NCBI GenBank assembly: GCA_044892525.1 | Contig: CM097885.1 | Coordinates: forward strand, 17,672,001 to 17,736,000 | DNA from: Schmidtea polychroa | Taxonomy: Eukaryota | DNA: 64,000 nucleotides | Direction of reading: 5' to 3' | Part shown: positions 25,258 through 63,035 of the stretch, in pieces | Layout: every line of letters begins with the position of its first letter | Numbering within the stretch: the first letter of the stretch is position 1 | Program-made: the position numbers and the translations under genes | Notes under the pieces: generated by a model | Seen by the model: only the letters and a program-made list of their open reading frames with translations | What the model was told of the DNA's origin: nothing | Databases searched by the model: none

Positions 25258-25565
25258 AGTAGTGTGTATCTATCCCTAACGACCACAAGCCTCCCAGCTG
25301 TTTTCATGTTTTATACCTATTTTTTTCCCGTTTTATACCTATTTTTCCCCCATAAACGTAAAAAAAAAACACTTAAAACCTTAAAAACCTATATCTTTTA
25401 ATTTCTTTATTCCGAAGACATTTTGCTTTCAAAATAAAAACTTAAAAAACAACAAAAATATTAAAAAAACAACACAAAATGTTAATAAAACAGGGAAAAA
25501 AATACTGATAAAACTATGAAAAACGTTTGTCGGCTTGCGGTCGTTAGGGATAGATACACACTACT
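25258..25565. repeat. Left TIR of B, itself bounded by a 34-bp inverted repeat
   Basis: AGTAGTGTGTATCTATCCCTAACGACCACAAGCC ... GGCTTGCGGTCGTTAGGGATAGATACACACTACT. Confidence 0.92.
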
Positions 25566-25875: not shown

Positions 25876-28800
25876 ATGAATTGTAATATTTGCAATAAAG
25901 TTTTTAAAAATAAAACAGGATTAATTTCTCACTATAAATCGAAAGCTCACTTACTAAAAGAAAATAATCTTAATGACACAAATTCAAAAGTTTGTACTAA
26001 ATGTAAAGGAAGATTTCTACATTCTGGATATAATAAACATTTTGAAAATTGTATCGGGAAAAATAGAGAAATATTTACATGTCCTCATTGTAACTTTTCA
26101 ACAAAACTAAATTTCTATTATTTAAGACATTTAAAAGAATGTAAAAATAAAAAACAAAATTCTGACGTTGAAGAATGTCATTCAGAAGGAGAACCTGATC
26201 ATGTTGAAAGAGAAAAATACAACTGGGATGATTTTAATCATATAGATGAATTTCAATTAAAAATTAATGGACCTGCAACCCCTGGAGAATATATAAGGAG
26301 AAATAAAAAAAATATTAAAAATTCTTTCACTGAAGCTTTAAAAAATTATAAACCAACAAGGTATAATGTTATAAAATATAAAATTACAATCAAAGCAAAA
26401 TATTGGAGAGGACCAGAAGAAAAGACAACTCCTTTAGATGTTGAAATTGGAATACCTTTTAAATATTTATTTTCAACTAGAGGATTTAATAAAAGCATCA
26501 AAGAAATAATTCAAGCAGTAGAAGCAAAACAAGAAGAGGTTGAAAATGAATTAGGAGATTCAAACTTAGTATTCAACTCTTTCCAAACTTTAGTGATTGA
26601 TTATTGGAGAGGATTACCACCTAATCCTAAATCTTATATTCAAACACCCTTTAGATCTAGGGTTGTTATAAATGTACAGAATAAGGATAACAAATGTTTC
26701 ATGTGGTCAATACTTGCATATTTACATCCTCAAGCTGAAAACCCTCAAAGAGTTTCAAAATACAAACAATATGAAAATGAATTAATATTTCCCAAGGGAT
26801 TCACACACCCAATGAAACTAGAAGACATTCCAGAATTTGAAAAACTAAATAATCTTAAACTTAATATTTATGAACATGTTAAAGGATGGGGACATGGAAG
26901 GAAAGATATTATTCCAATTTATATTTCTGATAGTGATAGCACGAGGGAGATATATCTTTTAATCTTGGAAGAAGGAAATAATCAACATTATGTTTTAATA
27001 AAAGACTTTCAAGCTTTTACATCACCAGAGAATCCAACTAGTGGAGGAGGAACATGTAAAAGATGTCTTCATTATTCAACAACTAAAAACTCTATGATTA
27101 AACATGCAAGATTTTGTGAAAAAGATGATCCAGCTTTAATTAGAATGCCTACAGATCCCAGGATGTATTTTAAAAACTTTACAAATTTATTACAAACATT
27201 AGGAGTTGTCTATGGAGACTTTGAATCTATAAATCGTAAACAAGATATAATTATGCAATATTTAAAAATAATAGAAAAATATAAACTCATGGATGAATGG
27301 AAAGCCTCTAAACAGAAGATGAAACCAGAGAGGATGAAAGCCTTTCTAAGAAAAAGAAATAAACCTAATAGTGTTAAAAAAACTAAACAATTACCATCTG
27401 CTTATAAATTATTATTTAAAAGTAATTATAGAATCTAGAGAATATGCATTTCAAGGAACTTCAGAAGATGTTTTAAATCATTTTACTAAAAGTATAAATG
27501 ATCTAGAACATGAAATATTTAAAATATTAAAAACAAAGTATCCTCAAAAAATTTCTAATCAACAACAACAAGAATATGAAAATACTTCCAACTGTTGGAT
27601 GTGTAAACAAGACATTCTTCCTGATGATAAAGTTATAGATCACGATCATTTAAAAAAGGAAAATAATTATCGAGGAGCAGCCCATAGAAATTGTAATCTT
27701 AATTGTCATACTCCTAAATTTGTACCAGTTATATTTCATAATCTTTTTGGTTATGACATACATCTATTTATTAAACATTTAGCAGAAAATGCTAAAAACT
27801 CTTTCAAAGTTATAGGACTTACAAAGGAAAAATATAAATCAGTTGAATATGGAAAATTAAAATTTATAGACTCGTTAAACTTTCTCAAATGTCTCTAGAT
27901 GGAATAGCTAAAACAATGAAAGCAGAAAATTTTAAAATCACTCGAGAATTCTTGGAAAAAAATAATATCCCCCAGAAGAATATCCTACATGCTTAGCAAA
28001 AGGAATATATCCCTATGACTATGTTGATTCATTTGAAAAATATAATGAAACAAAATTACCAGAGAAAGAAGATTTCTATTCCCAACTTCAAAAATCTCAT
28101 ATTACAAATCAAGAATATTCTCGAGCAAATAAAATGTGGGATCTTTTCAACTGTAAAACTTTAGGAGAATATACAAGTATGTACTTATCCCTAGATGTTT
28201 ATATTCTAGCAGATTGCTTTGAAGAATTTACAAAGTCTTTTGTTCTTAAACCTTATAATTATATAACAGCTCCTTCTTTAGCTTGGGATACTATGTTATA
28301 TACCATTTGGACTTCAGATCTTCCAGAATCTGATAAAATTATAGATCTTTTAACCGACCAAGATATGTTTAATCAAATTAAAACAAACATTAGAGGAGGA
28401 GTATCTTCAGTAATGGGGAATAGAGAAATAAAAGCTAGAAATGCAATAACTACTAGCCGAAGAATCTCTAAACACCCTGATCCATATATAAAACTTAACA
28501 ATGAGGAACTAAAAGAAGTATTAGAAGGAATGAAAAATCCTCTATTTATACTTTATATAGATGCAACAGCTTTATATTCAGGAATTATGACTCAATATTT
28601 ACCAATGAGTGACTTTCAAGAAATATACTCCTCTGAAGGACTTCCAGAAATAGAATGCCCTCCAGAAGAATATTTAAAGACTCTTATGAATGAAATACTT
28701 TCAACTCCTAAAGATTCTCCAATAGGATACTTTGTAGAATGTGACCTCGACTACCCAGATGATATAAAATCAGGAACAAGACATTTCCCTTTAGCTCCTA

Positions 28801-30200
28801 TAAGAAGAAAGATTGATATCAACGAACTTTCACTCTGGCAAATCTCACAAGATAAACCTCCAACAATGAAACTTCTTTGTGATCAAACAGATCGAACTTA
28901 TTATCTTTGTCACTATAGACTCCTCCAGTTTTATCTTTCACAAGGAATGATATTAAAAAAAGTTCATAGTGTCATAAGATTTAAACAAGCAGCATTCATG
29001 AAGACTTTCATCGAGGAGAACATTCGTTGTCGAAACATTGCAAAAAGAGAAGGTAACCTTTTAAAAGACAATAATTATAAACTTTTAAACAATTCAGTCT
29101 TTGGGAAGACAATGGAGAATGTTGATAAATATACTCATATTGAACTCCTAACAAATACCCCGAAAGATATAGCCCGTTATAATCGTATGCTAGGAAAGCC
29201 TACATTTAAAAATGCAGAAGTATTTTCTGAAAATCTTACTGCAGTAGAACTACAGAATTTTGAGAAAACATATAATAAACCAATATTTATCGGCTTTGCA
29301 ATTTTAGAACTTTCAAAATTACAAATGTATGAAACATATTATAACATCTTACAACCTATATATGGATCGAATATAGCAATGCATGCAATGGATACAGATT
29401 CAATGTTTTTAACAATAAGAACTCACGATTTACAAAGTGATATCTCTGAAAATCCTATACTTTCAAATTTAATAAATTCATCTGGAGAATTATTTTCGTT
29501 TAAAGATGAAAAACCTTTTACTCCTATAGAAAATGGAATATTTATTCGTGCTAAACAATATTCATATGAAACATTTACAAATCCTAAATTTGAAGAACAT
29601 TCATTTATATTTAAAACCCCAGAAACAGAAGAAAGCATTACACATAGATATCCTATATTCCCTAAAGGACCTGACGGACAGGGAGAAAAACCTGTAAAGG
29701 ATAACAGATGTAAAGGAATTCAGAGATGTGTAGCAAAGAATCTTTCTCATCAAGATTATATAGATACATTGAATCCAAATCATAAAGATAAAATTGATGA
29801 AATACATCAACTTAAAAGTGAAAAGCATGATATTTACTTGATAGAATCCCAAAAAGTATCATTATCAAATTATGATGACAAAAGATTCATACTAAGTGAT
29901 TTAAAGACAACTCTTCCTATAGGAAATAATTTAATACCGATAATAAAAAATCTTGATAGATTGAATCAGTTATATGGTACAAAGATTACTGATCTTGATA
30001 TTTATAATGTTGAAATCATTTATCCTGAGAGAATTGAGAAACCTTTATATTCTCAAGTTTTTAATCCTATATGTTTAGAACTTAAATATTTTAATACTGA
30101 TCCTGAATATATAAAAGGTCTAAGTGATAAAGAATTTAAAGATCATAAAGAGGTTCTAAAAACTAATTTCGAAAAGTTAACATCAGATTCTATCAAATGA
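25876..30200 (+). pseudogene. Protein-primed family B DNA polymerase of B (frameshifted)
   Basis: N-terminal C2H2 fingers, INVQNKDNKCFMWS, VYGDFES, EndoVII-like DHDH...YRGAAHRNCN, FHNLFGYD, YIDATALY, KLLNNSVFGKT, MDTDS, CKGI, YDDKR. Frame breaks near 27430 and 27895-27980. Confidence 0.95.
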
Positions 30201-35442: not shown

Positions 35443-35453
35443 GGCTTGTCGAC

Positions 35454-36842
35454 TTAAAAATCTGTTTTCTGTAACTCATTATTATAAAATCTACCTAATA
35501 TTTTTTCATTATTTAAATCGATGATACCATATGTTATTGGAGTTGTATGATGTATTTTATTTATAATAAAAATTTCATTTGTCCATTTTGCTGTGAATCC
35601 TTTTTCAAATTTATTTTTATATTTAAATATTCTTACGCGGTCACCAATTTTAAATTTTGGTTTTATAGGGGTTGTATCAACAATAACATCATTTTCAATA
35701 TTTACCACTTTAATGGTTTCAGGCTTCATGGAAGCATTTAAGGGTGTTGATTTTATAGAACTATGTACATCATTATTATATTCATTTACAATCTTTTGTA
35801 ACAATTCATTATTCCATTTTTGTTTTCCAATAGCAGTAAAATATTTCCACATTTTATATTTTAATGTTCTATTTAATCTTTCAACTACGACTGCTTTTCC
35901 TTCGTTTTCTGTTGAATATAATTTAATATCATTTTCATTTAAAAACTTTGTAAAAACTTTGTTATAAAATTCTGTTCCTTTATCACACCATAAATATTTT
36001 GGAATTCTTTGATATTCTTCAAATATATTTTCAAATGCTTCTGTAATTGAATATCCTGTTTTATTTTCTAAACACCTTGCAAAAGCAAATCTTGTATATA
36101 AATCTATTACTGTTAAAATTATTTTATATTTTTCAGGGTCTGATGATTTGGGCATAAAGACTAAATCAGCAGACCATGTTTGATCTTTTTCATGTACTTG
36201 AACTTTTAAATATTTTTTATTTTTTCTAAATTCATGGTGTAATTCGTTGGCATATTTTATTTCTGATTCTGTTGGGTTTTGTAAGGGTTTATTCTCAAAG
36301 AGTTGATTCTCAAGGGATCTTTCAACGTCTGCTTGTTCAATAATCCTTTTATTAGCAACATCTTTTGCTTTTCTAGGAAGTCCTGCTCCTATGAAAATCT
36401 TACCTTTCATTGCTAATTTAACTAGAGCTCTTTGAATCTTTTCTTGGGTTGATGGGTTTTGTATATTATTTAAATCATGTATTAAATTCACATCAGCAAC
36501 ATGTCTATCTCTAAGATCTTCTGAATTGTAAGCAATATCATGTTTTAAAGCTGCTTGGTCGATTCTATTTATTGGTTCTTCTCCTTGTTTAGGATTATTA
36601 TTTTCATCTAATCTAATATCTAATCTTGTTCCTGGCCCAGTATAATTGTGTTTAAATAAATGTCTTTTACCTGGATATTTTTCTGTAGTAAAAGGTTTTA
36701 ATATTGAAGATGTTGTTTTTGAAGATTGTAGATCACCTCCTGTAATATCAACTCTCGTATGTTTTTTAGTTTTGAGATGACTTGCTTTGTGATGTCTTGT
36801 AACTTGACAATTACAACTTTCACATGTCCAATATTTACTCAT
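35454..36842 (-). CDS. Zinc finger - phospholipase A2 - integrase fusion
   Basis: CESC...HLKTKKH. Parvovirus-type PLA2 NYTGPGT...PINRIDQAALKHDIAY...AD. Intact D-D-E core (WSADL, LWCDKG, VVERLNRT). No chromodomain. Confidence 0.92.
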   Translation of the reverse strand: MSKYWTCESCNCQVTRHHKASHLKTKKHTRVDITGGDLQSSKTTSSILKPFTTEKYPGKRHLFKHNYTGPGTRLDIRLDENNNPKQGEEPINRIDQAALKHDIAYNSEDLRDRHVADVNLIHDLNNIQNPSTQEKIQRALVKLAMKGKIFIGAGLPRKAKDVANKRIIEQADVERSLENQLFENKPLQNPTESEIKYANELHHEFRKNKKYLKVQVHEKDQTWSADLVFMPKSSDPEKYKIILTVIDLYTRFAFARCLENKTGYSITEAFENIFEEYQRIPKYLWCDKGTEFYNKVFTKFLNENDIKLYSTENEGKAVVVERLNRTLKYKMWKYFTAIGKQKWNNELLQKIVNEYNNDVHSSIKSTPLNASMKPETIKVVNIENDVIVDTTPIKPKFKIGDRVRIFKYKNKFEKGFTAKWTNEIFIINKIHHTTPITYGIIDLNNEKILGRFYNNELQKTDF

Positions 36843-36871
36843 TTTAAAAGTTTTTTTATGGGGGAATCTAC

Positions 36872-38167
36872 TTATGAAGAATCTCCCCTAACATTTTCAA
36901 TAATTGAAATCTTTCCACCATATAATTTCATTTCTATTTTCTTTTCTTCTAATATTAATGTATATACTTTAGCTTTAAAATTAGAATCCTTTGTTATATG
37001 AAGTGTAACATCAACATTATTTATAGCTAGGCGATCATCTTGGTCTGATACATTTATACAAAATATAGAATATAAATTTTTGAAATCTTCTAAACTTAAT
37101 TGCGGTTCAACTTTGAAATCATAACATGTTTCAATATAATTTAGATATGGGAATATGTTTTCATTATTTTCAATATTAAATTCCATTCTATTTATTGGAT
37201 AATAAGAACTATTTAATTGAATTTGGATTGTTTTTAAATTATCATCTCCAATCTTTTGAATAAATAGATTGTTATTTTTTTGGAAAGATGAATCTACTTC
37301 TTTGAATCCAATCAAGATATATCTTGGTCGGTATGCTAAATTTGCCACCTTTATAGAATATGTTGAACCCTCTGTCATACTAAATTCACTACAGATTCTA
37401 TTTAAATAATTTACATTTATAGACTTGTTGGAATTTAATCTTTCAAGGAGTTTGATTTCAGAATGTGGGTTTAATGTCCATTCAGGTATATGCAATTCAA
37501 GTGTTGATAATTTTAATTTAGCTGTTGTGTCTGCAGCTCCATAGAACAATCTTTTATCACCTTCTACTCTATTACAGATGAGTTCTATAAAAACATTATG
37601 AAGTACACGGTTATAATTTTGAAGGAATCCAAATAAGTGTTTTAATTCAAAATAACCTTCAAATTTTTTCAACTTAAAAAGTTCAACTCTTTTATAGTAA
37701 GCATAATTTATATCTAAACCATCTTTATCTAAATCCCCTTTATTAACATCAGGAATCCAACCTGTTAATTCACCATATTCGTTTTTATAATCACAACCAG
37801 TTAAAATAAAATTTAACATTGTAGAATATACTCCTGGATGCAAAACAGTTTCAATTTCTGATGATCCTAGTTTTAATCTCATGTTGGAGAATAAATTTGG
37901 AAAGAAATTATTTTCTAGGGTTATATCTTTGTTTGCTTCAATTTCGAATTCAATTTTATAATATAATTTGGCATTACAAATATCTATTGGGTTTGATGTT
38001 TGAAGAGATTGAAAAACTATATCACCCCTACGATTTAAGTTTGCAATAGATCCTGAAGTTGGCGAGATTTTTAAAATATCATTTTTCTTGATTTCATGAG
38101 TAAATTCTTTATTATAATCAAGATTTAATTTATTTTTTTCTTGAATTTTAAGATTTATATTATTCAT
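36872..38167 (-). CDS. Polinton B major capsid protein
   Basis: Intact 431-aa ORF with NNFFPNLFS, LKHLFGF, RPRYILIGF and YSIFCINVS motifs, consistent with a Polinton double jelly-roll MCP. Confidence 0.85.
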   Translation of the reverse strand: MNNINLKIQEKNKLNLDYNKEFTHEIKKNDILKISPTSGSIANLNRRGDIVFQSLQTSNPIDICNAKLYYKIEFEIEANKDITLENNFFPNLFSNMRLKLGSSEIETVLHPGVYSTMLNFILTGCDYKNEYGELTGWIPDVNKGDLDKDGLDINYAYYKRVELFKLKKFEGYFELKHLFGFLQNYNRVLHNVFIELICNRVEGDKRLFYGAADTTAKLKLSTLELHIPEWTLNPHSEIKLLERLNSNKSINVNYLNRICSEFSMTEGSTYSIKVANLAYRPRYILIGFKEVDSSFQKNNNLFIQKIGDDNLKTIQIQLNSSYYPINRMEFNIENNENIFPYLNYIETCYDFKVEPQLSLEDFKNLYSIFCINVSDQDDRLAINNVDVTLHITKDSNFKAKVYTLILEEKKIEMKLYGGKISIIENVRGDSS

Positions 38168-38203
38168 TTATATAATAAAAATTTAAAAAATGATAAAAAT
38201 CCG

Positions 38204-38286
38204 AACTCCGATAGCGCAGTGGGCTAGACTGGCACAGTGGTTCAAATGGATAGCGGTTCAAATCCTAACTACGGTTAGTTTTTTTT
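38204..38286 (+). ncRNA. Putative Pol III tRNA-like small RNA, B copy 1
   Basis: A box TAGCGCAGTGG (38212), B box GGTTCAAATCC (38255), T8 terminator. Confidence 0.6.
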
Positions 38287-38436
38287 AACATAAAATAATA
38301 TTAAAAATTTGAAAATAATATTGAAAATGGTGTGGGTATCTTAGATTTATATTTTATTTTATTTATTTTTATTTTATTTTATTTATTTTATTTTATTTTT
38401 TTATTAATTAAAAATTTAAAAAATGATAAAAATCCG

Positions 38437-38519
38437 AACTCCGATAGCGCAGTGGGAATAGACTGGCACAGTGGTTCAAATGCTAGCGGTTCAAATCACG
38501 TCTGAGGTTAGTTTTTTTT
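38437..38519 (+). ncRNA. Putative Pol III tRNA-like small RNA, B copy 2
   Basis: A box at 38445, B box GGTTCAAATCA at 38488, T8. Part of a ~233-bp tandem duplication. Confidence 0.55.
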
Positions 38520-38689
38520 CAACATAAAATAATATTAAAAATTTGAAAATAATATTGAAAATAATTTTTGAAAATAAATATTAAAAAAATATATAGTGTG
38601 GGTATCTTAGGAAATAAATCTTGTTTATTTTATTTATTTATTAATTAATTAATTTTTAAACATAAATATGAAAAAAAAAATATTGAAAC

Positions 38690-39050
38690 GGGTGTGGTGG
38701 CGAACCGGTAATTATCGCCACCAGTCTTTCGAACACCCCCGGATCGATTCTATAATGTGCACATTTATTTCTTGGTTGTTTTCGGACCTCTTTCGGATTC
38801 GCTTTCGAATTCATTTGTACTTTCGAGCAGCACACTTAAAACGCCGATGAAATCGACTTCGTGAGCGAGAAGCGAATAATAAGGTGTGCTGCTATTATCG
38901 AATTGATTCTGATATATGAGTCTGGCCAGCTTGTATATTGGAAGAGATTTGATAAACGAAAGAGGTTGAAATAAAAAAAAAATGATCCGGATCAAAAAAA
39001 ACTGTTGAGAGGACAGTGAAAAAAAAATACCACTGTCCTCCCAGAGCAGT
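38690..39050. other. Conserved GC-richer structured non-coding subterminal region of B
   Basis: Hairpins GGTGGCGA/TCGCCACC, GCAGCACAC/GTGTGCTGC and GAGGACAGTG/CACTGTCCTC. Conserved at 52995-53375 and partly at 48675-48860. Confidence 0.65.
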
Positions 39051-39142
39051 TTTACTATTTTCATAAAATTTTTTATTCTTCAAGATTAAGATTTATAAAA
39101 TTATAAATTAGTCAAATAGCAACTTGCTAGTTGACATCCTCA

Positions 39143-39408
39143 AGTAGTGTGTTTATATCCCTAACGACCGCAAGCCGACAAACGTTTTTCATAGTTTTAT
39201 CAGTATTTTTTTCCCCGTTTTATTAATATTTTTGTTGTTTTTTTTAAGTCTTTATTTTGAAACCAAAATGTCTTCAGAATAAAGAAATTAAAAGATATAG
39301 GTTTTTAGGGGTTTTAAGTGTTTTTTTTTACGTTTATGGGGGAAAAATAGGTATAAAACATGAAAACAGTGGGAGGCTTGTGGTCGTTAGGGATATAAAC
39401 ACACTACT
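39143..39408. repeat. Right TIR of B, itself bounded by a 34-bp inverted repeat
   Basis: AGTAGTGTGTTTATATCCCTAACGACCGCAAGCC ... GGCTTGTGGTCGTTAGGGATATAAACACACTACT. Confidence 0.92.
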
Positions 39409-39414
39409 GATGTG

Positions 39415-41966: not shown

Positions 41967-42193
41967 TTTTTCCTTTGAATTTATTGAAAAGAGAGTTTGA
42001 AGACTATAAATCAGTAATATATCGATGTTTGTTGATAATCGCAAATTTTCGGCACTGCCTTTTTCAAGTGAATTTTCCTTGAAAATATTCACTTGAAAAA
42101 GGCAGTGCCGAAAATTCTTGAGTATCAACAAACATCGATATTTTACAGAGTTATAGTCTTCAAACTCTCTTTTTAATAAATTCAATGGAAAAA
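41967..42193. repeat. ~225-bp imperfect palindrome (foldback/MITE-like)
   Basis: Arms such as TTTTCGGCACTGCCTTTTTCAAGTGAAT / ATTCACTTGAAAAAGGCAGTGCCGAAAA, centred near 42079. Confidence 0.85.
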
Positions 42194-47380: not shown

Positions 47381-47992
47381 TTATGAATGAATTCTATTAC
47401 AAAGTAATTCTATGAAAACATTATGGAGTATACGATTATAGTTTTGAAGGAATCCAAATAAATATTTTAATTCAAAATAACCTTCAAATTTTTTAGACTT
47501 GTAAAGTTTAACACGTTTATAATAACCATAATTTGTATCTAAACCATCTTTATCTGTATCACCTTTATTTACATAAGGGATCCAACCTGTTAATTTACCA
47601 TATTCATTTTTGTAATCACAACCAGTCAAAACAAAATTTAACATTGAACAATATACACCTGGATTCAAAATATTTTCAACTTCTGAGGGTCCTAATTTTA
47701 ATCTCATGTTGGAGAAGAAATTTGGGAAGAAATTATTTTCTAGGGTTATATCTTTGTTTTCTTCAATCTCTAATTCAATTTTGTAATATAATTTTGCATT
47801 ACAAATATTTATAAGGTTTGATGTTTGAAGAGATTGAAAAACTATATCACCTGAGCGATTTAAATTTGAAATGGAACCAGAGGTTGGAAAAATTTTAAGT
47901 ACATCATTTTTCTTAATTTCATGAATAAACTGTTTATCATAATCAAGATTTAATTTATTTTTTTCTGAAATCTCGAGATTTATATTGTTCAT
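47381..47992 (-). pseudogene. Truncated MCP of a B-related Polinton relic
   Basis: Aligns to the first ~200 aa of 36872-38167 with many substitutions. Confidence 0.9.
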
Positions 47993-48234
47993 TTTTATAA
48001 TAGAAATTTCAATTTTTTATATTTTTATATTTTTCAATATTTATTAAAATCTTGAGCATTTATTCTCGGGTGTCTATATTTAGAGTATATTAAATTATTA
48101 TTAAAATCTTTAGTGTTAATTCTCGAGTGTCTATGTTTAAAACATATTAAATTATTATTATTAAAATCTCGGGTGTCTATATTTAGAGTGTATTGAATTC
48201 TGATAAAAACTTGGAAGTTTAAATTATTATTTCA

Positions 48235-48526
48235 AGTAGTGGTGAAACTAGTCGCCTTGCCCACCCCTTCCCTATTATGTTAGATCTGTATTTTAATAAA
48301 TTTGTAAGATCTAAAAATCTCGGGTGTCTATGTTTAGAATATATTGAATTTTTAAAATTTCAGGTATTAGTATTTGGATTTATTGAATCTATAAAATCTC
48401 GGGTGTCTGATTTAGAGGATATTAAATTTTGAGAAATATTGAAATATTAAATAATACGTTTTTATTATTCACAAATGTTGCGATTATGGGGTGGGGTGAG
48501 GCAAGGCGACTAGTTTCACCACTACT
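48235..48526. mobile_element. AGTAGT-bounded hairpin cassette (mini Polinton-end-like unit)
   Basis: Perfect 27-bp inverted repeat AGTAGTGGTGAAACTAGTCGCCTTGCC. No TSD found. Confidence 0.75.
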
Positions 48527-49149
48527 ATCGTACATCTCTGTAAAGTCTAATAGTGCGCATATATTATAAAATAGATAGTGCGATATATTTTTGCGATATA
48601 TTAATATATTTTTGTGTCTATCAGTAGTTTTTAAGTTAATTAAAAAATAAATATAAAAAAATAATATATTGAACCGGTTGTGGTGGTGAACCAAGAAGCA
48701 TCGCCACAAGTCTTTTCAACACACCTAGGATTGATTTCTGAATTTCTTTTGGACCTCTTTCGAACCTTCTTCGAATCTTTCGGTCTTTCGGTAATGCGTT
48801 TAAATCACCGCTGAAATTAATAAAAAGATCCTCAACAAAATAACTGCTGAGAGGACAGTGGTATTAAAAGAAACAACGTATTGTTGGTGTTCTCGAAGAA
48901 ATAAAAATCAGATGATTAAAATAATGGTTGATTGAAAGGTATAAGAGATGGTTATATGCCCAGGGGTTTGAAAGAAGACGACGGAAGTTAGCCTAGAGTC
49001 TTGAGAAATCTCCCACGATTATTTCAAACGATAAGGCACCCAATATAGTGTACAATGCAGGCAGGTGAGCCCCTGTGTTAGGACTACTCCTCTATCGGAA
49101 AACAATCTCTATCCAAACAAGCATTTATATTTAAGACATATAAAAACAT

Positions 49150-49641
49150 TGAATTAACAGACCAACTGGCCAGCGAGTTATATAGAGACTTGTTTGAGTT
49201 ATACAACAACAGTTTATATGATAAATCCGTTGAGAATCTGTTAGAAATTGGATGAATTTAAGGTTATGTCATTCAGCTGGAAAGATGATTGCATATGCTT
49301 TAAAACCTACTTTCATAAAATCCATCAGAATTGATTCAATATGTTTAGACAGACCTAGATATATCAGTCAATCAGTACTAGATCTGAATTAACTGAGGAT
49401 TTATCATCTCCAATATAACGAATTGGCGAAATATGGGGATGAATTTAATTGTGAGATTAATATTGTTGCCAGCGACACAGACTTCTGTTTTTTTGAGATT
49501 AAGCACTGTAAGTTTGACATTCTTTCACTGGCAATGATTATAGACAGCCTTCTAGACACCTCTAATTTCGATCCTCTTCACCCTTTATATTGTAGGGTTT
49601 TCAATTCTGCTATAGGAAAATTTAAAGATGAAAGTTACTAA
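49150..49641 (+). pseudogene. Relic of A-family pPolB
   Basis: DEFNCEINIVASDTD...LLDTSNFDP...IGKFKDE parallels 39940-40445. Confidence 0.85.
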
Positions 49642-49676
49642 ATTACAAATCATCTTCCTAATTTATAATTTTCCAT

Positions 49677-50190
49677 CAGTGCTGGACTGGAATACCGGAA
49701 ATATGTCGGTGTGCCTACCGGCACACAAATATTGTCAAGTTTTTTATTTTTTTAAATTAAATTAAATTACATTTTTACAATTTCGACAAATACTCGAATG
49801 AATAATTGAAACAATAAAATTAATAGATAAACAAGGACTTAGTTATCGCTGTTTAAATGAATCTACATATAATTTGATAGATGAAAATTTAGACTATGGT
49901 AATTTTCTAGAATTACTTTTATTAATAAGTAAATTTGATCCCTTATTAAAAATTCACATAGAAAGAGTAAAATTCGCCATGACAAAATTGGCACCAACAA
50001 AGCAAGGAGTAATCTCGCAACACTATTATCTAAAACTACAACAAATTCTGTTTTTAATGCCATTAATATTCTAATGAAAGAAATTCTTTCAAATGAAATA
50101 AATAAACCCGAAATATACAGTATTCAATTAGACACCACCCAAGATATTAACGGAAAAGATCAATGTTCAGTTGATATAAGATAATCATTA
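49677..50190 (+). mobile_element. hAT transposon fragment (ZMYM1/DUF4371-like transposase remnant)
   Basis: Starts CAGTGCTGG. GNFLELLLLISKFDPLL..H and YSIQLDTTQDINGKDQCS motifs. Confidence 0.65.
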
Positions 50191-50863
50191 TAAAATAAAA
50201 ATATGAAAATTTTATTTTCTTGAGAAGTCTCGCATTTTGGGCAAATTAAGAAATTGATGCCATAGAATCTATGGTCATAATATCATTATATATTTTTATG
50301 GGATGTAGATCTATGTCCGATTGACAATACGCAATATTGTGGGTACAATCGATCTAATAAAGTATAAATATATCAAAATATATTTATAAATTATTGACAA
50401 AATATTATTCATTCATAATGCATTTATTATTATATATTTATTACAATGTCTTTATTCAAAATTATTATCAATTGTTATTATTTAATCCATTTTTATTACA
50501 GAAATAATTATAAAATGAATAATATAATAATACATGATAATAATTTTCATTCCCATATAATATTTAGTAATTATTGTTATATTCAATTTAGTCCTTAATA
50601 AATTTAATTCATTATTATTTAAAAAACCTTATAAAAATGAAATATATTAATAACTAATTGATAATGATTATTGTTAATAATTGAAGTCTAATTGTCTAAA
50701 GATATATCAAAATACAAATTGATTACCTAACTGGTATTATTCAAACAGCCAATTTAAATGGCAAATAAATTAAATTAATATTTATACTTAGCATTTATAC
50801 TTATTATACTTTTACTACAATATATATTTTATTTATAAATTAGTTATTTAAATATCCCTAACA

Positions 50864-51560
50864 TCTCTCCTGTTTAAATATTTTAGGCAATCAACGTTGC
50901 GAATTATAAATTATTCATCTCTGTCTCGTAATTCATAACTATTTGCATGGATCTTTCTAACAACGACAAAAGGTCATGTATATCGGTTTTCGTTTTTTTC
51001 TCACATCTACTTTAACTAAAACATTTTCATTTATATCGAATTCTCGGTGTATCCGGTTCTCATTTTTAAAATTTAAATTTCTTGGTTATGATTGCACTTC
51101 CTCCACTATTTTACTTCTATCGTTGTTATATTCTTTTTTTATTGTTCCATTCTCTAGATATCCGGAAACCAAATACTGCTTCTGATGGACTCTTTCCAAG
51201 TGTGCTTTGAATAGTAGCATTTAAAGTAAACTCAATTTCAGGTAACACTTCAACCCAATTCCTCTTAAATTTATCTCTTAATGATGTACTGATAAAATCT
51301 CGTATTGTTCGAAATTGTCTTTCAATCAAACCATTAGTGTTATGATGATAAGGGCTAGAAAATTGCAGCTGTATATTATGATTCTCTGCCAACTCTTTTA
51401 TCAAATTAGACTCAAATGTTTTTCCACAATCAACATGAATAACTCTCGGTGCCCCATATTTTAATATCCAGAATTTCACAATAGTATCCGCTGTAGTTTT
51501 TCGTCTTGCTTTGCTACTGCTGTCAACAATATGTATCGACTACATATATCTATAATTCCC
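50864..51560 (-). pseudogene. Ty3/Gypsy integrase 3' fragment with PPT
   Basis: YGAPRVIHVDCG...SPYHHNTNGLIERQFRT. Purine tract AAACAGGAGAGA followed by TG at ~50863 (probable LTR start). Confidence 0.85.
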
Positions 51561-52632
51561 AAATTTATTTCTTTGTCAAGGTTTTTCGTTTCTGACATAT
51601 TTCACAACTTTGTGTATATTGACACACGATTTTATTTAATTCCTAAATATCGTAATTTATTGATTTTTATTGTACATTTAGTGTATTTTAATTGATTAGT
51701 TGAGATGAAATAATAGCAAATCAAACGAGAAAAGTTTATGTATACTACCTGGATTTTGTCATTATTTCAAAAAATAAGTCTGAGAAATATTAAGAAGAAG
51801 CATTCATTATTTAAACCAGTTTATGCTTTCCATGATTATGAAATGCATTTATTGAAGAAACCAATAGATTATAATTTGATGAAACCTAATGCATTAATGA
51901 AGAAATGCAATAATTATTGGATTGAACAATTTGATGAAGATATTCAAGATGCTATTGGTACATTATTGGCATGTATCAATAAGGACCTTGTGATTTATGA
52001 AAGCGGATCATTTCTAGGTGGACAATCAAGTGAATTTTAAGAAGAAAATAATCAAATACCTTTTAAACCAGATTTTAACCCTTTCCTATCTTGTGTCTAT
52101 AAAAATATGACAAAAAGAAATTAACCATTCTATCCTCTGTCTGTAAAAAAATAACATTATTTCTAAATAGTTTATTTCCCATGCACTGTCAATTATATTA
52201 TAACCAACTGTTATGACCAAAAACTAAAAAAAAATAATTTTTTGAAAATTTTTTAAAATTTTATTAGGATTGGAAGGGCTGGACACCTAAAATAAACAAG
52301 ATAGGAAAGGGTTAAATGGAATTTGAAAATATGTATCCAAGGTTTCAAAACAGCACCAAGTGCAGTTAAATATTACTAGTATGGAACATTATAAGTTGAA
52401 AATTATAAACAACGATTAATGTTAATATTGTTCAGTTTGTTTAATAAAAGTTTTACAAAATCTTAATTTTATGTTGTTATAAAAATACTTTGAAATTTAA
52501 AATTCAAATTATTTATTCAATATAAGTTTCATTGGTTTCATTAATGTTGACAAATATTAATTACCGAGGACGAGTCCATTTGAAAATTATACGAAATATG
52601 AGATATCCATCAGGTAAACCTCAACAAAATTT

Positions 52633-52873
52633 AGTGAGGAATCTATGCACCCCAGCACCCCCACCCTAAAAAAAACAGCGCTATTGACCCATATTTTCCA
52701 CATTTATATGCTTTTTTACCCCATATTCTTCACTTTTTTTAACTTTTAAACTTTGTCCCTATTGCCATTAACCCTTAATTTCTTCCCTTAAAAGTAAAAA
52801 AGTTCGGAATAGATGTATTTATAGATTAGTAATTCCGAGAAAAGGTAACGGGGTGCATAGATTCCTCACTACT
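52633..52873. repeat. Terminal hairpin cassette of E
   Basis: AGTGAGGAATCTATGCACCCC (52633) inverted with GGGGTGCATAGATTCCTCACTACT (52850-52873). Confidence 0.85.
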
Positions 52874-52994
52874 TGGTCTTAAGGATTTAATGTTATAAGA
52901 ATATCAGATTACCTAATTCATAATGATCTAGGTCGCCTGATCACCTTAAGGTTTTGAAAGTTTTAAAAATAAAAAATTTTATGAAAATAGTAAA

Positions 52995-53375
52995 ACTGCT
53001 CTGAGGGGACAGTGGTATTTTTTTTTTTTTTTTTTTTTTTCACTGTCCCCTCAACAGTTTTTTTTTGATCCGGATCATTTTTTTTTTATTTATCAACCTC
53101 TTTCGTTTATCAAATCTCTTCCAATATACAAGCTGGCCAGACTCATACATCAGAATCAATCCGATAATAGCAGCACGCCTTATTATTCGCTTCTCGCTCA
53201 CGAAGTCGATTTCAACGGCGTTTTAAGTGTGCTGCTCGAAAGTACAAATGAATTCGAAAGCGAATCCGAAAGAGGTCCGAAAACAACTGAGAAATAAATG
53301 TGCACATTACCGGGATCGATCCGGGGGTGTTCGAAAGACAGGTGGCGATAATTACCGGTTCGCCACCATCACCCG
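52995..53375. other. Conserved structured non-coding subterminal region of E
   Basis: Reverse complement of 38690-39050 with few changes. Confidence 0.65.
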
Positions 53376-53529
53376 TTTCAATATTTTTTTTTTCATATTT
53401 ATGTTTAAAAAATAATTAATTAATAAAAAAATAAAATAAATAAAATAAAATATACAAGTACTTTATAAATATAAGATACCCACACTATTTTCAATATTAT
53501 TTTCAAATTTTTAATATTATTTTATGTTG

Positions 53530-53612
53530 AAAAAAAAACTAACCTCAGATGTGATTTGAACCACTATCCATTTGAACCACTGTGCCAGTCTATTCCCACT
53601 GCGCCATCAAGG
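53530..53612 (-). ncRNA. Putative Pol III tRNA-like small RNA, E copy 1
   Basis: A box TGGCGCAGTGG, B box GGTTCAAATCA and T-run. Orthologue of the B copies. Confidence 0.55.
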
Positions 53613-53860
53613 TTTGAATTTTTGTCATTTTTTAGACTATAAATAATCGATTCAAGTTCTTTAACTCTTTCCTGTAATTGTTTCATTTTCTTCAATCTTA
53701 TATCAGCAACATCTACAGCCTTCATATAAAAATGTCGATACTTTTCATTATCTACCATCAACTCTTTGATGTATTCTAATGGTTCTTCTTCTCTTCTTTT
53801 CATTCTCTTATGTTTAACTTCATTCAATTCATTTCTCATTCTTTCTTTTAACTCATCCAT
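53564..53860 (-). CDS. Small coiled-coil protein present in E but not B
   Basis: 98-aa charged helical ORF with an AAAATG start. Confidence 0.55.
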   Translation of the reverse strand: MDELKERMRNELNEVKHKRMKRREEEPLEYIKELMVDNEKYRHFYMKAVDVADIRLKKMKQLQERVKELESIIYSLKNDKNSNLDGAVGIDWHSGSNG

Positions 53861-54017
53861 TTTTATAAATATTTTTTTATTGGATATATTAATTTTTGGT
53901 AGTTAAAACGTTTTTGATCTTAAATTTCCAAGAGTTGCCGTTGACCAATCACCTTAAAAATTTGTAAAAGTACTAAATCGAGTATGCTGATCAATATTTT
54001 GTTTAAAAAAAAATTTG

Positions 54018-54099
54018 AAAAAAAATTGACCGAAATGGGATTTGAACCCATTGGTATTGGCAATGCAGTCGAGTGCTATTACCACTAAGCTATTAGAGC
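54018..54099 (-). ncRNA. Putative Pol III tRNA-derived small RNA, E copy 2 (tRNA-Cys-like 5' half)
   Basis: TAGCTTAGTGGTAATAGCACTCGACTGCA, perfect T arm ATGGG-TTCAAAT-CCCAT, T8. Acceptor and anticodon stems do not pair. Confidence 0.65.
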
Positions 54100-54261
54100 T
54101 ATACTCAATATAAAATAAGTTGTTAATGTGTGACTATTTATTGATGAAATTAATAATTAATTATTCATTTTCTCGACAACTACCACTCAGATCGATCTGA
54201 AAATTTAAATATATACTAAAATCAGTACGCTGAATCAGATTCCGTTGAAAAAAAAATATCG

Positions 54262-54343
54262 AAAAAAATTGACCAAAATTGAAAATTGAACCCGGTACTC
54301 CCGGTGATAAAATTGAAGCCTATTCCCACTCCGCTATAATGGC
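54262..54343 (-). ncRNA. Putative Pol III tRNA-like small RNA, E copy 3
   Basis: A box TAGCGGAGTGG, weak B box GGTTCAATT, and the same GGTCAATTTTTTT end as copy 2. Confidence 0.45.
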
Positions 54344-54399
54344 TTACATAATATATTTAATTAATCCTATTGTGTGTGTGTAAATTTTAATATATAAAA

Positions 54400-55692
54400 A
54401 TGAATAACATAAATCTTAAAATTCAAGAAAAAAATAAATTAAATCTTGATTATAATAAAGAATTTACTCATGAAATTAAAAAAAATGATATTTTAAAAAT
54501 CTCCCCAACTTCAGGATCTATTGCAAACTTAAATCGTAGGGGTGATATAGTTTTTCAATCTCTTCAAACATCAAACCCTATAGATATTTGTAATGCCAAA
54601 TTATATTATAAAATCGAATTAGAAATTGAAGCAAACAAAGATATAACCCTAGAAAATAATTTCTTTCCAAATTTATTCTCCAACATGAGATTAAAACTAG
54701 GATCATCAGAAATTGAAACTGTTTTGCATCCGGGAGTATATTCTACAATGTTAAATTTTATTTTGACTGGTTGTGATTATAAAAACGAATATGGTGAATT
54801 AACAGGTTGGATTCCTGATGTTAATAAAGGGGATTTAGATAAAGATGGTTTAGATGTAAACCATGGTTACCATAAAAGAGCTGAACTTTATAAATCTAAA
54901 AAATTTGAAGGTTATTTTGAATTAAAACACTTGTTTGGATTCCTTCAAAACTATAATCGTATACTTCATAATGTTTTTATAGAATTCATCTGTAATAGAG
55001 TAGAAGGTGATAAAAGATTGTTCTATGGAGCTGTAGATACAAAAGCTAAATTAAAATTATCAACACTTGAATTACATATACCTGAATGGACATTAAACCC
55101 ACATTCTGAGATTAAACTCCTTGAAAGATTAAATTCCAACAAGTCTATAAATGTAAATTATTTAAATAGAATCTGTAGTGAATTTAGTATGACAGAGGGT
55201 TCAACATATTCTATAAAGGTAGCAAATTTAGCATACCGACCAAGATATATCTTGATTGGATTCAAAGAAACAGATTCATCTTTCCAAAAAAATAACAATC
55301 TATTTATTCAAAAGATTGGAGATGATAATTTAAAAACAATACAAATTCAATTAAATAGTTCTTATTATCCAATAAATAGAATGGAATTTAATATTGAAAA
55401 TAATGAAAACATATTCCCATATCTAAATTATATTGAAACATGTTATGATTTCAAAGTTGAACCGCAATTAAGTTTAGAAGATTTCAAAAATTTATATTCT
55501 ATATTTTGTATAAATGTTTCAGACCAAGATGATCGCCTAGCCATAAATAATGTTGATGTTACACTTCATGTAACAAAGGATTCTAATTTTAAAGCTAAAG
55601 TATATACATTAATATTAGAAGAAAAGAAAATAGAAATGAAATTATATGGTGGAAAGATTTCAATAATCGAAAATGTTAGGGGAGATTCTTAA
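54400..55692 (+). CDS. Polinton E major capsid protein
   Basis: Intact 430 aa, nearly identical to the B MCP. Confidence 0.87.
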   Translation: MNNINLKIQEKNKLNLDYNKEFTHEIKKNDILKISPTSGSIANLNRRGDIVFQSLQTSNPIDICNAKLYYKIELEIEANKDITLENNFFPNLFSNMRLKLGSSEIETVLHPGVYSTMLNFILTGCDYKNEYGELTGWIPDVNKGDLDKDGLDVNHGYHKRAELYKSKKFEGYFELKHLFGFLQNYNRILHNVFIEFICNRVEGDKRLFYGAVDTKAKLKLSTLELHIPEWTLNPHSEIKLLERLNSNKSINVNYLNRICSEFSMTEGSTYSIKVANLAYRPRYILIGFKETDSSFQKNNNLFIQKIGDDNLKTIQIQLNSSYYPINRMEFNIENNENIFPYLNYIETCYDFKVEPQLSLEDFKNLYSIFCINVSDQDDRLAINNVDVTLHVTKDSNFKAKVYTLILEEKKIEMKLYGGKISIIENVRGDS

Positions 55693-55709: not shown

Positions 55710-57118
55710 ATGTCTTTAAATAAATATTGGAGATGTGAAACTTGTAATTGTCAAGTTACAAGACATCATAAAGCAAGCCATCTTAAAACTAAAAAACATA
55801 CAGTAGGTGACCTAATTCCACGAGCTGGAGGCGATTTGCAATCTTCAAAAACAACATCTTCAATATTAAAACCTTTTACTACAGAAAAATATCCAGGTGA
55901 AAGACATTTATTTAAACACAACTATACTGGACCAGGAACACGTCTAGATATTAGATTAGATGAAAATAATAATCCCAAACAAGGAGAAGAACCAATAAAT
56001 AGAATTGATCAAGCAGCTTTAAAACATGATATTGCATACAATTCAACAAATCTTAGAGATAGACATGTTGCAGATGTGAATTTAATACATGATTTAAATA
56101 GTATCCAAAATCCATCAACCCAAGAAAAGATTCAAAGAGCTCTAGTTAAATTAGCAATGAAAGGTAAGATTTTCATAGGCTTAGGACACAGTCCGATCAC
56201 CATGGGTGCAAGACTTCCTAGGAAAGCAAAAGATGTTGCTTATAAAAAGATTATCGAACAAGCAGAGATTGAAAGATCCCTCGAGAGTACAGCCAAGACT
56301 AGTTTACAAACCCCAACAGAATCAGAAATAAAATATGCTAATGAATTACACCATGAATTTAGAAAAAATAAAAAATATTTAAAAGTTCAAGTACATGAAA
56401 AAGATCAAACATGGTCTGCAGATTTAGTCTTTATGCCCAAATCATCAGACCCTGAAAAATATAAAATAATTTTAACTGTAATAGATTTATATACGAGATT
56501 TGCTTTTGCAAGATGTTTAGAAAATAAAACAGGATATTCTATTACAGAAGCATTTGAAAATATATTTGAAGAAAATCAAAGAATCCCAAAATATTTATGA
56601 TGTGATAAAGGAACAGAATTTTATAACAAAGTTTTTACAAAGTTTTTAAATGAAAATGATATTAAATTATATTCAACAGAAAACGAAGGAAAAGCAGTCG
56701 TAGTTGAAAGATTAAATAGAACATTAAAAAATAAAATGTGGAAATATTTATTGCTATTGGAAAACAAAAATGGAACAATGAATTGTTACAAAAGATTGTA
56801 AATGAATATAATAATGATGTACATAGTTCTATAAAATTAACACCTTTAAATGCTTCCATGAAGCCTGAAACCATTAAAGTGGTAAATATTGAAAATGATG
56901 TTATTGAAAAACCAAAGTTTAAAATTGGTGACCGAGTAAGAATATTTAAATATAAAAATAAATTTGAAAAAGGATTCACAGCAAAATGGACAAATGAAAT
57001 TTTTATTATAAATAAAATACATTATACAACTCCAATAACATATAGCATCTTTGATTTAAATAATGAAAAAATATTAGGTAGATTTTATAATAATGAACTA
57101 CAGAAAACAGATTTTTAA
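55710..57118 (+). pseudogene. ZnF-PLA2-integrase of E, disrupted
   Basis: Same domains as in B. TGG>TGA at 56598-56600 and a frameshift near 56730-56750. Confidence 0.92.
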
Positions 57119-57129: not shown

Positions 57130-57921
57130 CTAAAACAAACTTTTCCATATTTCAGCTTCTTCTCTATCCAAATAAATATAATTATATTTTTCTTTCCAAT
57201 GATTATCAACAAACATATCAAACATATTCTTATCAGGTTCAACATTTGAAAATAAATCATTATAAATCATATTCTTATCACGGCGATCTAATTTAAAAAA
57301 TATAAAACAATTGGAATTATTTCTTATTGAATTTTTATCTAAAGCATAATATGTTTGAGATATATAAATAACATTACAATTATTATGTCGACCTCGTGTA
57401 AAGTAACTCTTTTGAATCTCTTGATTTTTCATATTAACAACATCATCAAATATAACTAGATTCTTTTTATCTTTAGGAAGTAAATCACAATGTAAAACAT
57501 CTTCAGGTTTGTTAGAGAATAAAACTTGAATTGCCTCCTGCCCTTCTTCACAAATATAATCATTTTTATTACTAATATCTGATTCTAAAATCTTTTCCTT
57601 ATACCAATCAACCATATCACAAGGTTGAAAAACTTCTTCAGGACACCTATGTTGATTTTTAAAAATATCAATTATTGCTTTTTTAGTTAATTTATTTTCA
57701 AATCCACATTTCAAAAGTTGTAATTCTGGTTGATTTATGGTTGTAGAATAAAAGATTAAATTATTATAATCTAAAAAATCATCTTCAAGTAACATTCTCA
57801 AAACAAGTACATTCTTTCCACATCCAGAAGAACCAACAATTAATAATCTAAAATTATCAGGAAATACTTTATTATTAAATTTACTCTTATGTCTATTTAA
57901 AATTGGTTTCCAAATATCCAT
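57130..57921 (-). CDS. Polinton E packaging ATPase
   Basis: GSSGCGK, VIFDD and RGRH motifs. Confidence 0.93.
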   Translation of the reverse strand: MDIWKPILNRHKSKFNNKVFPDNFRLLIVGSSGCGKNVLVLRMLLEDDFLDYNNLIFYSTTINQPELQLLKCGFENKLTKKAIIDIFKNQHRCPEEVFQPCDMVDWYKEKILESDISNKNDYICEEGQEAIQVLFSNKPEDVLHCDLLPKDKKNLVIFDDVVNMKNQEIQKSYFTRGRHNNCNVIYISQTYYALDKNSIRNNSNCFIFFKLDRRDKNMIYNDLFSNVEPDKNMFDMFVDNHWKEKYNYIYLDREEAEIWKSLF

Positions 57922-59453: not shown

Positions 59454-59918
59454 ATGACTCCTTCAATATTAGATTTTTTAAAAACATTTGGAATAAATGC
59501 AAAAACAAATTTTGATTTAAAAGATTATGCAAATTATTTAAATTTAAAAATTAAAATATTAATGAATGATGAATTATCAAGTCTGGAGAGTCCCCTGAAT
59601 ATAATAATCAATTATCAAAATTCAAATGAAAAAGGATCTCATTGGGTTTGTATATATAAGAAATCTATCTACTTTGATTCTTTTGGGATTAAACCTACTA
59701 AAGAAGTTGAAGATTATCTCTTGAGGGGTTCTCCGATTGATTCCCCAAATGGTTATACTTTTAACTCTTTACAAGTTCAACCTTTGAATACTAAAATATG
59801 TGGTATTTTAAGTTTATATGTTTTGTATAGATTGAATAAGGGAGAGGGAAAGGGGCATACGCAGGATTTTGAATCTATAATTCAAGAAATTTATAATGAT
59901 CTAGAATCTCTACTATAA
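59454..59918 (+). CDS. Adenain-like cysteine protease
   Basis: GSHWVC, YFDSFG and QVQ...CG motifs. Confidence 0.92.
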   Translation: MTPSILDFLKTFGINAKTNFDLKDYANYLNLKIKILMNDELSSLESPLNIIINYQNSNEKGSHWVCIYKKSIYFDSFGIKPTKEVEDYLLRGSPIDSPNGYTFNSLQVQPLNTKICGILSLYVLYRLNKGEGKGHTQDFESIIQEIYNDLESLL

Positions 59919-59966: not shown

Positions 59967-60731
59967 ATGGAGCTTCACAACCCTCCGGAAGATAATTTAA
60001 AAAAAATGGTAAACATAATGTCAGATAAATATTCAAGAACTTTATCTATAAATTCAAAAGAATCAGAGTTTACTATAAACTTTCAAGATTCAATTAAATT
60101 AGATCAAAATTTAAATTATGAATTGGGGCTATTATGGTTTTGTGCTTATAATACTATTTTTAATATAACTAAAGATAATAATAAATTTACTATTCAAACT
60201 CGTGATGGGCATAAACCAGAAATTATAACAATAGAACCTGGGGCATATGAGATAAAAGATTTAAATGATATACTTTCTAAAAAAACAAATGAAGGTATTA
60301 AAATTAAAATGGATATACCAACTTCAAAATGTGTAATGACTTTGAAGAATATAAAAATTAGTTTTTTAGATAATTGTTTCTTTCACACAGTTTTAGGATT
60401 TAAACCTATGGATATAACAATAAAAGAAGATAAAATAATAACATCAGAACATATTATTAAAATAATAAATACAAACACAATAAATATTCATTGCGATTGT
60501 ATAACAGGTTCTTATAATAATGGTAAACAAACAAATGTTTTATATTCCTTTCCCTCAAACACAGTTCCTATGGGATATAAAATAGTTGAAAGAATGAATC
60601 CTCCAAATTATTTACCTTTATGTAGAAAATATATAATGGATATTAATTTTAAAATTCTTAATCAAGAAGGAGAATTGATTGATTTTAATGGAGAAGAGAT
60701 TTCAATGTATTTACATTTGAAACAGGTTTGA
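59967..60731 (+). CDS. Polinton E minor capsid protein (penton)
   Basis: Intact 254 aa with IEPGAYEI and INIHCDCITGSY motifs. Confidence 0.88.
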   Translation: MELHNPPEDNLKKMVNIMSDKYSRTLSINSKESEFTINFQDSIKLDQNLNYELGLLWFCAYNTIFNITKDNNKFTIQTRDGHKPEIITIEPGAYEIKDLNDILSKKTNEGIKIKMDIPTSKCVMTLKNIKISFLDNCFFHTVLGFKPMDITIKEDKIITSEHIIKIINTNTINIHCDCITGSYNNGKQTNVLYSFPSNTVPMGYKIVERMNPPNYLPLCRKYIMDINFKILNQEGELIDFNGEEISMYLHLKQV

Positions 60732-62480: not shown

Positions 62481-63035
62481 TCAGTTATGGTTGAAAGCCA
62501 ACCTATGAATCATTAATTTATGATCTTTAAATTCTTTATCACTTAGACCTTTTATATATTCAGGATCAGTATTAAAATATTTAAGTTCTAAACATATAGG
62601 ATTAAAAACTTGAGAATATAAAGGTTTCTCGATTTCTCTCTCGGGATAAATAATTTCAACATTATAAATATCAAGATCAGTAATCTTTGTATCATATAAC
62701 TTATTCAACTTTTCTAGATTTTTTATTATAGGGATTAAATTATTTCCAATAGGTAGAGTTGTCTTTAAATCACTTAGTATGAATCTCTTATCATCATAAT
62801 TTGATAATGATACTTTTTGAGATTCTATCAAGTGAATATCATGGTTTTCACTTTTAAGTTGATGTATTTCATCAATTTTATCTTTATGATTTGGGTTTAA
62901 TGTATCTATATAATCTTGATGAGAAAGATTCTTTGCAACCACTCTCTGTATTCCTTTACATCTGTTATCCTTTAAATTAGTAATATTTTTTATAATTTCA
63001 AAAATGTTATTTTCTTGATTTTTAGTTTCCATCAT
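62481..63035 (-). CDS. Stand-alone duplicate of the pPolB C-terminus (B-type allele)
   Basis: From KDNRCKGIQR onward almost identical to the end of the B pPolB, preceded by a novel ATG-initiated ~21-aa leader. Confidence 0.8.
   Translation of the reverse strand: MMETKNQENNIFEIIKNITNLKDNRCKGIQRVVAKNLSHQDYIDTLNPNHKDKIDEIHQLKSENHDIHLIESQKVSLSNYDDKRFILSDLKTTLPIGNNLIPIIKNLEKLNKLYDTKITDLDIYNVEIIYPEREIEKPLYSQVFNPICLELKYFNTDPEYIKGLSDKEFKDHKLMIHRLAFNHN

Follow-up and report, generated by a model that had tools for sequence, protein, structure and literature searches.

A possible exchange of self-inverted ends and polymerase between closely related Polintons in Schmidtea polychroa

Two Polintons, B and E, lie in a window of 64,000 nucleotides from Schmidtea polychroa (the whole stretch of DNA analysed here), and they combine near-identical bodies with different terminal cassettes and different pPolB polymerases. 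With a probability that we put at about one half, E is chimeric: its body belongs to the B family and its ends and polymerase to a related donor lineage, the exchange having gone into either E or B. An earlier note on this DNA had proposed that such ends are exchangeable and may be swapped together with the polymerase. The shared body with its different ends and polymerases bears out the first part of that proposal, whereas a joint swap of end and pPolB from one donor is a suggestion of the model discussed below.

The window is AT-rich, eukaryotic-type DNA (28% G+C) in which several Polintons are nested one inside another. An older pPolB gene was the insertion site of B, and B's two flanks read as the two sides of that gene. 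Element B is laid out as follows.

25258-39408: element B, flanked on both sides by the 6-bp target-site duplication (TSD) GATGTG
25258..25565, + strand: B left TIR, self-inverted, with 27-bp perfect arms; TSD GATGTG at 25252-25257
28134..30200, + strand: polymerase part of B pPolB (Pfam PF03175)
39084..39142: B-specific spacer, 59 bp, joined to the block shared by B and E also in sequencing run X3
39143..39408, − strand: B right TIR, self-inverted, with 27-bp perfect arms; TSD GATGTG at 39409-39414

B is a Polinton in every feature tested. Its TIRs are within the 100-1500 bp of the Polinton/Maverick criterion, its TSD has the required 6 bp, and its termini, (AGT)2//(ACT)2, carry the Polinton/Maverick end motif as given in PMC8097293 (papers are cited here for those portions of their text that were available). 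Pfam matches identify the double jelly-roll MCP (PF21738), the A32-type packaging ATPase (PF04665) and the PLA2-like/rve integrase (PF00665 and PF08398); a separate ORF at 25876-27438 holds the 5′ part of pPolB and begins 310 bp inward of the left TIR. Because B has its TSD, self-inverted cassettes are proven as the ends of a complete element. The fold-back of its right TIR is far more stable than that of shuffled sequence (z = −9.65). Elsewhere in the window, 4847-6571 encodes ubiquitin fused to a DUF1759 domain, and two 605-bp copies of a proteasome-subunit-like ORF, 99.7% identical, flank it at 2974-3583 and 6881-7485.

E runs in the opposite orientation to B, from 52633 across the right edge of the window, and includes the following features.

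52627..52632, + strand: candidate left target-site copy of E, its position moving 3 bp if insertion was followed by loss of the first triplet
52633..52873, + strand: E left terminal cassette, non-coding and self-inverted, 241 bp
52633..52653, + strand: outer arm of the cassette, starting with a single AGT instead of two
52850..52873, − strand: inner arm of the cassette, a full (AGT)2 copy of the terminus, then TG toward the body
52874..52961: E-specific spacer, 88 bp, with no match in B or the rest of the window
52962..53404: subterminal non-coding block common to E and B (38660-39083 in B)
54400..55692, + strand: E MCP, 96.7% amino acid identity to B MCP
55710..57115, + strand: E PLA2-like and rve integrase gene, broken by a stop at codon 297 and, further on, by a frame change
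57130..57921, − strand: E packaging ATPase, 95% amino acid identity to that of B
62481..63035, − strand: B-like 3′ piece of pPolB, 94.7% amino acid identity over 152 codons
63060..64000, − strand: 3′ part of E's divergent pPolB (dS 0.98 against B), continuing past the window edge

E is a Polinton by gene content, its left end alone falling within the window: pPolB, rve integrase, packaging ATPase and double-jelly-roll MCP are all present in B by Pfam and in E by identity to B. By B's geometry, the right end of E should lie near window position 68,000, about 4 kb past the window. The E pPolB piece had no Pfam match of its own, yet it is ~60% identical to B's. Pfam also returned no match for the ORFs at 59454-59918 and 59967-60731, which may encode a maturation protease and a minor capsid protein.

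The cassette ends form a perfect 21-bp inverted repeat, or 24 nt if the inner arm's additional AGT is included, and none of 200 shuffles folded as stably (z = −6.87). The earlier note had placed this cassette at 52633..52970; the self-inverted cassette is real, but it ends at 52873, and the remainder is mostly the 88-bp spacer, which has no counterpart in B. Its limit of homology between B and E, ~39078/52966, was measured at 39083/52962 and so was accurate to within 5 bp. The subterminal block is 93-96% identical between E and B (two unmasked pieces) and ~70-80% identical to 48640-48865. Rfam placed no family on the E cassette (its two matches in 47900-54400 were both elsewhere), the E arm pattern was not found in viral, metagenome or genome contig collections, the shared-block piece was not found in viral contigs, and MCP relatives were not found in viral contigs, genome contigs or phages.

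Several smaller features surround this end. In E's left flank, 52074-52316 is another short element with 21-bp inverted ends, repeated in the runs examined. The end region of E holds a tRNA-like sequence at 54027-54099 on the − strand (Rfam RF00005, 32.4 bits), in which ARAGORN finds no tRNA; further units with A/B-box-like motifs were seen by eye at ~54270-54340 and 53540-53610, and such units are duplicated in B at 38200-38280 and 38430-38510. A stem next to a T run recurs in three copies of the shared block (38660-38750, 53315-53410 and 48640-48736) and could represent a small RNA; by eye, the copy near cassette D has a G-C pair replaced by G-U.

The polymerase stands apart from the rest of the element. 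In 9 of the 9 shared genes compared, B and E differed at a dS of 0.08-0.37 and were 80-97% identical in amino acids, the lowest value (80%) belonging to one gene, whereas the parts of pPolB within the window differed at a dS of 0.98, with ~60-61.7% amino acid identity. The earlier note's divergent E polymerase was thus confirmed at 61.7%; of its nearly identical MCP and integrase, the former fits well at 96.7%, but the integrase, 91.1% identical over the part before the stop, fits less well. Directly behind the stop of E's polymerase lies a B-like 3′ remnant of pPolB with a dS of only 0.22, which starts abruptly at ~62975 and is preceded by ~20 unrelated codons with their own ATG. Since the pPolB region of E is present at both a body-like and a foreign divergence, a rate effect is ruled out, and E's divergent polymerase is a replacement rather than a product of fast evolution. 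Tree distances between B and E agree, at ~0.03 changes per site for MCP and 0.54 for pPolB. Still, the two polymerases were mutual closest relatives among the 14 rows of the tree, which comprised 11 of 42 database matches and three window pieces. Gene conversion between the E polymerase and the B-like remnant was considered and found no support (11 vs. 11 informative sites).

We then compared the E end with assembled contigs from four of the 22 listed runs (X1, X3, X19 and X20), over 48150-53250 only. X19 and X20 belong to one study, and X19 is possibly the window's own source. From the flank bin to the first cassette bin, summed contig depth rose from 2.9k to 1.0M in X19 and from 486 to 307k in X20, and this level persisted, in the same order, into the E body; summed depth is not a copy number, and long single contigs had ~160-325 in X19 and 40-48 in X20. 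The E cassette is highly repeated, and the repeated stretch begins at the cassette start, although the depth bins merge the 88-bp spacer with its neighbours. In X1 and X3, which come from two other studies, contigs left the E sequence at 52965-52968, among the contig ends listed. Past this junction, X3 contigs matched B's spacer exactly (30/30, by eye), and X1 contigs continued into a third sequence loosely like B's spacer. Because contigs of both runs switch at the same place, the junction is a real, recurring switch point. Cover on the E cassette itself was nearly nil in these two runs (60.8/6.6 in X1 and 0.3/0 in X3) compared to the shared block (488k and 118). We did not count this as a sign of a population-specific end, as a gap in filtered contigs is no evidence.

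The self-inverted design is not limited to B and E. A further cassette, D, lies between an MCP fragment (47381-47992, 83% amino acid identity to B) and a diverged subterminal block.

48235..48526, − strand: cassette D, with 27-bp perfect arms

Its right junction is bridged by contigs from three runs, and its fold-back is again stable relative to shuffles (z = −9.21). The position of D, internal to a subterminal block, shows that an element can come to contain such a cassette. A motif repeated left of D recurs inside it (48040-48420), linking the D cassette to the capsid side. Across the whole window, inverted 18-mer seeds of the cassette kind numbered 53, vs. 0 in 30 of 30 shuffles. The cassettes have arms of 21-27 bp and a loop of 100-250 nt, the inner copy of the terminus lies 150-310 nt inside, and the body-side dinucleotide of the inner arm is TG in four of five (a post hoc count in which B's two are homologous). 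The design is also not confined to this host: the database locus L016, whose capsid protein is 31% identical, starts with a 150-bp self-inverted AGTAGT cassette (16-165) whose arms are 21 bp long; the capsid gene follows downstream. Among 37 MCP loci, L016 was the only one to show the design, and none of 7 pPolB loci did, though most of these loci stop short of a terminus.

Several looser relatives of the design came to light along the way. L016 holds a decayed additional copy of the inner arm after its cassette (~220-245), and another capsid relative, L036, has a 179-bp imperfect palindrome without AGT ends at its contig end (1258-1434). In the window, the 6-kb element C (14706-20778; TSD TACCAT, AGTAGA ends) has TIRs with a 19-bp internal inverted repeat that excludes the terminus, a variant of the self-inverted design. 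Three AGTAGTGAG-type element ends stand in direct orientation at 8888, 9153 and 9214; a TBP-like gene (9546-10010, PF00352) and an ATPase-like ORF lie downstream of these AGTAGTGAG-type ends. The first 11 nt of the end at 9153 are identical to the E inner arm, which is not significant. A 228-bp near-perfect palindrome occupies 41967-42193, with 110-nt arms and a 7-nt gap.

Whether the B and E cassettes share an origin bears directly on the exchange. In local alignments, 18 and 13 of 150 shuffles scored as well as the real pairs, and past their first 6 nt the arms were not similar. At first sight the E arm resembles the B arm and the end at 9153, but this likeness likewise disappeared against shuffles (1165 and 2196 of 5000 as good for the B arm, 1913 of 5000 for the end at 9153). 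Global alignments, by contrast, scored above shuffles (z of 4.4 and 2.1, or 4.6 and 1.6 with block shuffles). However, scores were also high in the wrong orientation (z of 5.1 and 3.8), and cassette D aligned with E as well as B did; because of this, we read the high global scores as shared layout, although a remote common ancestry of the cassettes is possible. The earlier description of unrelated cassettes of the same design is right about the design and about the missing local alignment, but "unrelated" is too strong and "unalignable" is safer. The same results allow for a reading with no exchange at all, in which a single ancestral end gave rise to those of B and E, with divergence in place outpacing that of the body. 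The global scores (z up to 4.6) and the identical layout and first nucleotides of the two ends favour it, yet adjoining non-coding DNA is 93-96% identical and then stops sharply, B's own two TIRs differ at just 10 of 265 sites, D matches E as well as B does, and the replacement of the polymerase is established independently. We consider divergence in place very improbable.

Returning to the chimera, the cassette at 52633-52873 would be E's TIR, and its position matches that of B's: 88 bp from the shared block, compared to 59 bp in B. Two ends and pPolB would form one module supplied by the donor through two junctions, at 52962 and ~62975. Two template switches could have brought this about, or a nested insertion followed by a deletion. 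If the ends are brought together, ends and polymerase become neighbours, and a need for fit between polymerase and origin would then select for matched sets. As the B polymerase gene adjoins the TIR, a single donor explains both changes with fewer events, and E's end and polymerase may well derive from one. The integrase stayed with the body, which suggests that this shared enzyme needs little beyond the terminal AGT motif, whereas pPolB or the terminal protein would read the arm sequence. Against this stands that a single copy of E is the sole link of cassette to polymerase, with the right end lying beyond the window. We rejected a simpler route of one crossover followed by panhandle copying of the TIR, which fails on the different spacers and on B's unmatched TIRs.

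The chief competitor to a single-donor chimera accepts the cassette as E's TIR but has end and polymerase replaced separately, with any pPolB of the clade able to use any AGT fold-back end. We think it a possible but clearly weaker reading, at about half the weight of our own. It draws on nematode Polintons whose pPolB was replaced while their TIRs were kept (PMC10748475), on body genes that are patchy (dS 0.08-0.37, one at 80% amino acid identity) and suggest exchange beyond one module, on D, where yet another cassette adjoins capsid sequence of this family, and on the 10 kb between the two junctions in a linear element. What tells against it, apart from the economy of one donor where pPolB abuts the TIR, is that an end-module model has already been published (PMC11296320).

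Less probable still is that the cassette is a unit apart from E rather than its TIR, either a MITE-like mini-Polinton or the stump of a nested element beside a truncated B-family copy. Both sides of each cassette are complete element ends, and its dimensions are those of a MITE, short and non-coding with inverted ends (241-308 bp in the window and 150 bp in L016); that of E is highly repetitive in X19 and X20, D sits within a non-coding region, and the window as a whole is a nest of mutually inserted elements, as with B in the older pPolB gene. However, none of the five cassettes examined is flanked by a TSD of its own, a point against solo MITEs. The E cassette has the position and the polarity of B's true TIRs, with TG facing the body; in other runs the sequence changes at the same junction, and the foreign polymerase toward E's other end would need a second explanation. 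A composite transposon, in which by definition the flanks encode their own transposase, was set aside: the cassettes have no 100-aa ORF, and B-right, D and E have no 70-aa stop-to-stop ORF.

How such ends are maintained can be approached through B. Aligned with each other, its two TIRs show substitutions at 10 of 265 sites, plus 44 gap columns. Two of these substitutions fall in the outer arm, and each has its mirror image in that TIR's inner arm (together 4 of the 10 sites). In simulations of ten random changes, two mirrored pairs arose in 9 of 200,000 trials and one in 2,270 of 200,000, the latter figure applying if both changes, which are 2 nt apart, were a single event. Beyond position 27, the arms differ identically in both TIRs, and thus the matched tract is short. 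Decay after insertion cannot mirror changes, and pairing with the far end would match the outer arms to each other; local copying or selection for pairing is therefore needed, and either way local fold-back matters. Judged from sequence alone, the ends of B are corrected or selected locally and not across the element, and selection explains the mirroring as well as copying does.

These patterns suggest a fold-back function for the cassettes. On a displaced single strand, the end would fold onto its own inner arm and create a local duplex origin, and the terminus could be checked or rebuilt against the inner arm as template, the far end having no part in the pairing. Protein-primed initiation involves a jump-back, whose failure would cost one terminal repeat unit. 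Such a failed jump-back would give the missing AGT of E's outer arm, although a later mutation is possible. An end that folds locally needs no match to the far end for replication, which would make exchange easier. Alternatively, the folded 3′ end may itself prime synthesis, as in parvoviruses, in place of protein priming; this is compatible with exchange but unlikely in our view. The geometry does leave a paired 3′ end on a template, and the terminal palindromes found in protist virophages and PLVs have been suggested to act by hairpin priming (10.64898/2026.07.28.741278). However, the elements here encode pPolB and keep the (AGT)2 termini typical of protein-primed Mavericks, and the published palindromes are short-gapped and mostly in elements without pPolB (10.64898/2026.07.28.741278). 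More broadly, and as a tentative proposal, a Polinton clade may have swapped the whole-genome panhandle for autonomous, self-correcting plug-in ends that are exchanged with their cognate polymerase, with integrase and capsid retained and with different end types sweeping different host populations.

Polinton replication has so far been modelled only from sequence, in a racket or panhandle scheme that pairs the two far ends (PMC4196379), as in the adenovirus panhandle (PMC12116113). The elements here resemble adintovirus-like Polintons/Mavericks in their TIRs, 6-bp TSD, AGT motif, pPolB, rve integrase, ATPase and double-jelly-roll MCP (PMC8097293). They differ in that the terminus recurs within each TIR, inverted, at a distance of 150-310 nt, and in that B's two TIRs are unmatched to each other at arm sites where each matches itself. 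We found nothing on self-inverted TIRs in the available portions of PMC8363768, PMC8547959 and 10.1101/2024.01.15.575659, and a literature search, with Repbase, supplements and most subscription papers outside its scope, turned up neither mirrored arm changes nor self-inverted TIRs with a long loop. Comparable structures are the Halocafeteria virophage and PLV palindromes, which likewise fold back at the very end of the TIR, beside the TSD; these are 52 nt, found with a gap limit of 10 and mostly in elements without pPolB (10.64898/2026.07.28.741278), whereas the pPolB elements here have 21-27-bp arms and loops of 100-250 nt. If a fold-back function holds, Streptomyces telomeres (Tap/Tpg) offer an analogy, with a protein-primed end whose terminus repair is templated by local single-strand fold-back (PMC5449611). 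No homology is claimed; the elements here have no Tap/Tpg and one long-range stem instead of packed small hairpins, and the same source notes that for adenovirus- or phi29-type replicons such repair has not been reported (PMC5449611).

Swapping of replication and virion modules has already been published (PMC8502044), as has an end module made up of TIRs with replication and integration genes (PMC11296320). In PLVs, virophages and Polisuviricotina (Barth et al.), the morphogenesis module is similarly kept while TIRs and replication genes change, and tandem or nested integration followed by deletion has been proposed as the route (PMC11296320; 10.64898/2026.10.13.758929). Those cases, as far as the accessible text describes them, are mostly distant or of other replicase classes, and the integrase lies inside the module. 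By contrast, the bodies of B and E are ~85-99% alike, the integrase stays with the body, and both junctions and a B-like polymerase remnant are visible. The nematode pPolB1/pPolB2 swap is alike as a recent polymerase replacement in a closely related element, but there the TIRs were conserved, indicating that the coupling of end and polymerase is not obligatory, and the polymerases are of distant classes (PMC10748475). Here the end differs too, and the polymerases are sisters at ~60% amino acid identity. One body with two ends, two polymerases and many copies thus provides a natural experiment on recognition by pPolB or terminal protein vs. integrase, and mirrored arm changes provide a purely computational test of local against panhandle correction of the ends. 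If true, our reading would explain at base level the published replication-module mosaicism of these viruses. Module swapping is already known; what seems new here is a recent case with both junctions, in which the ends are seemingly kept true locally.
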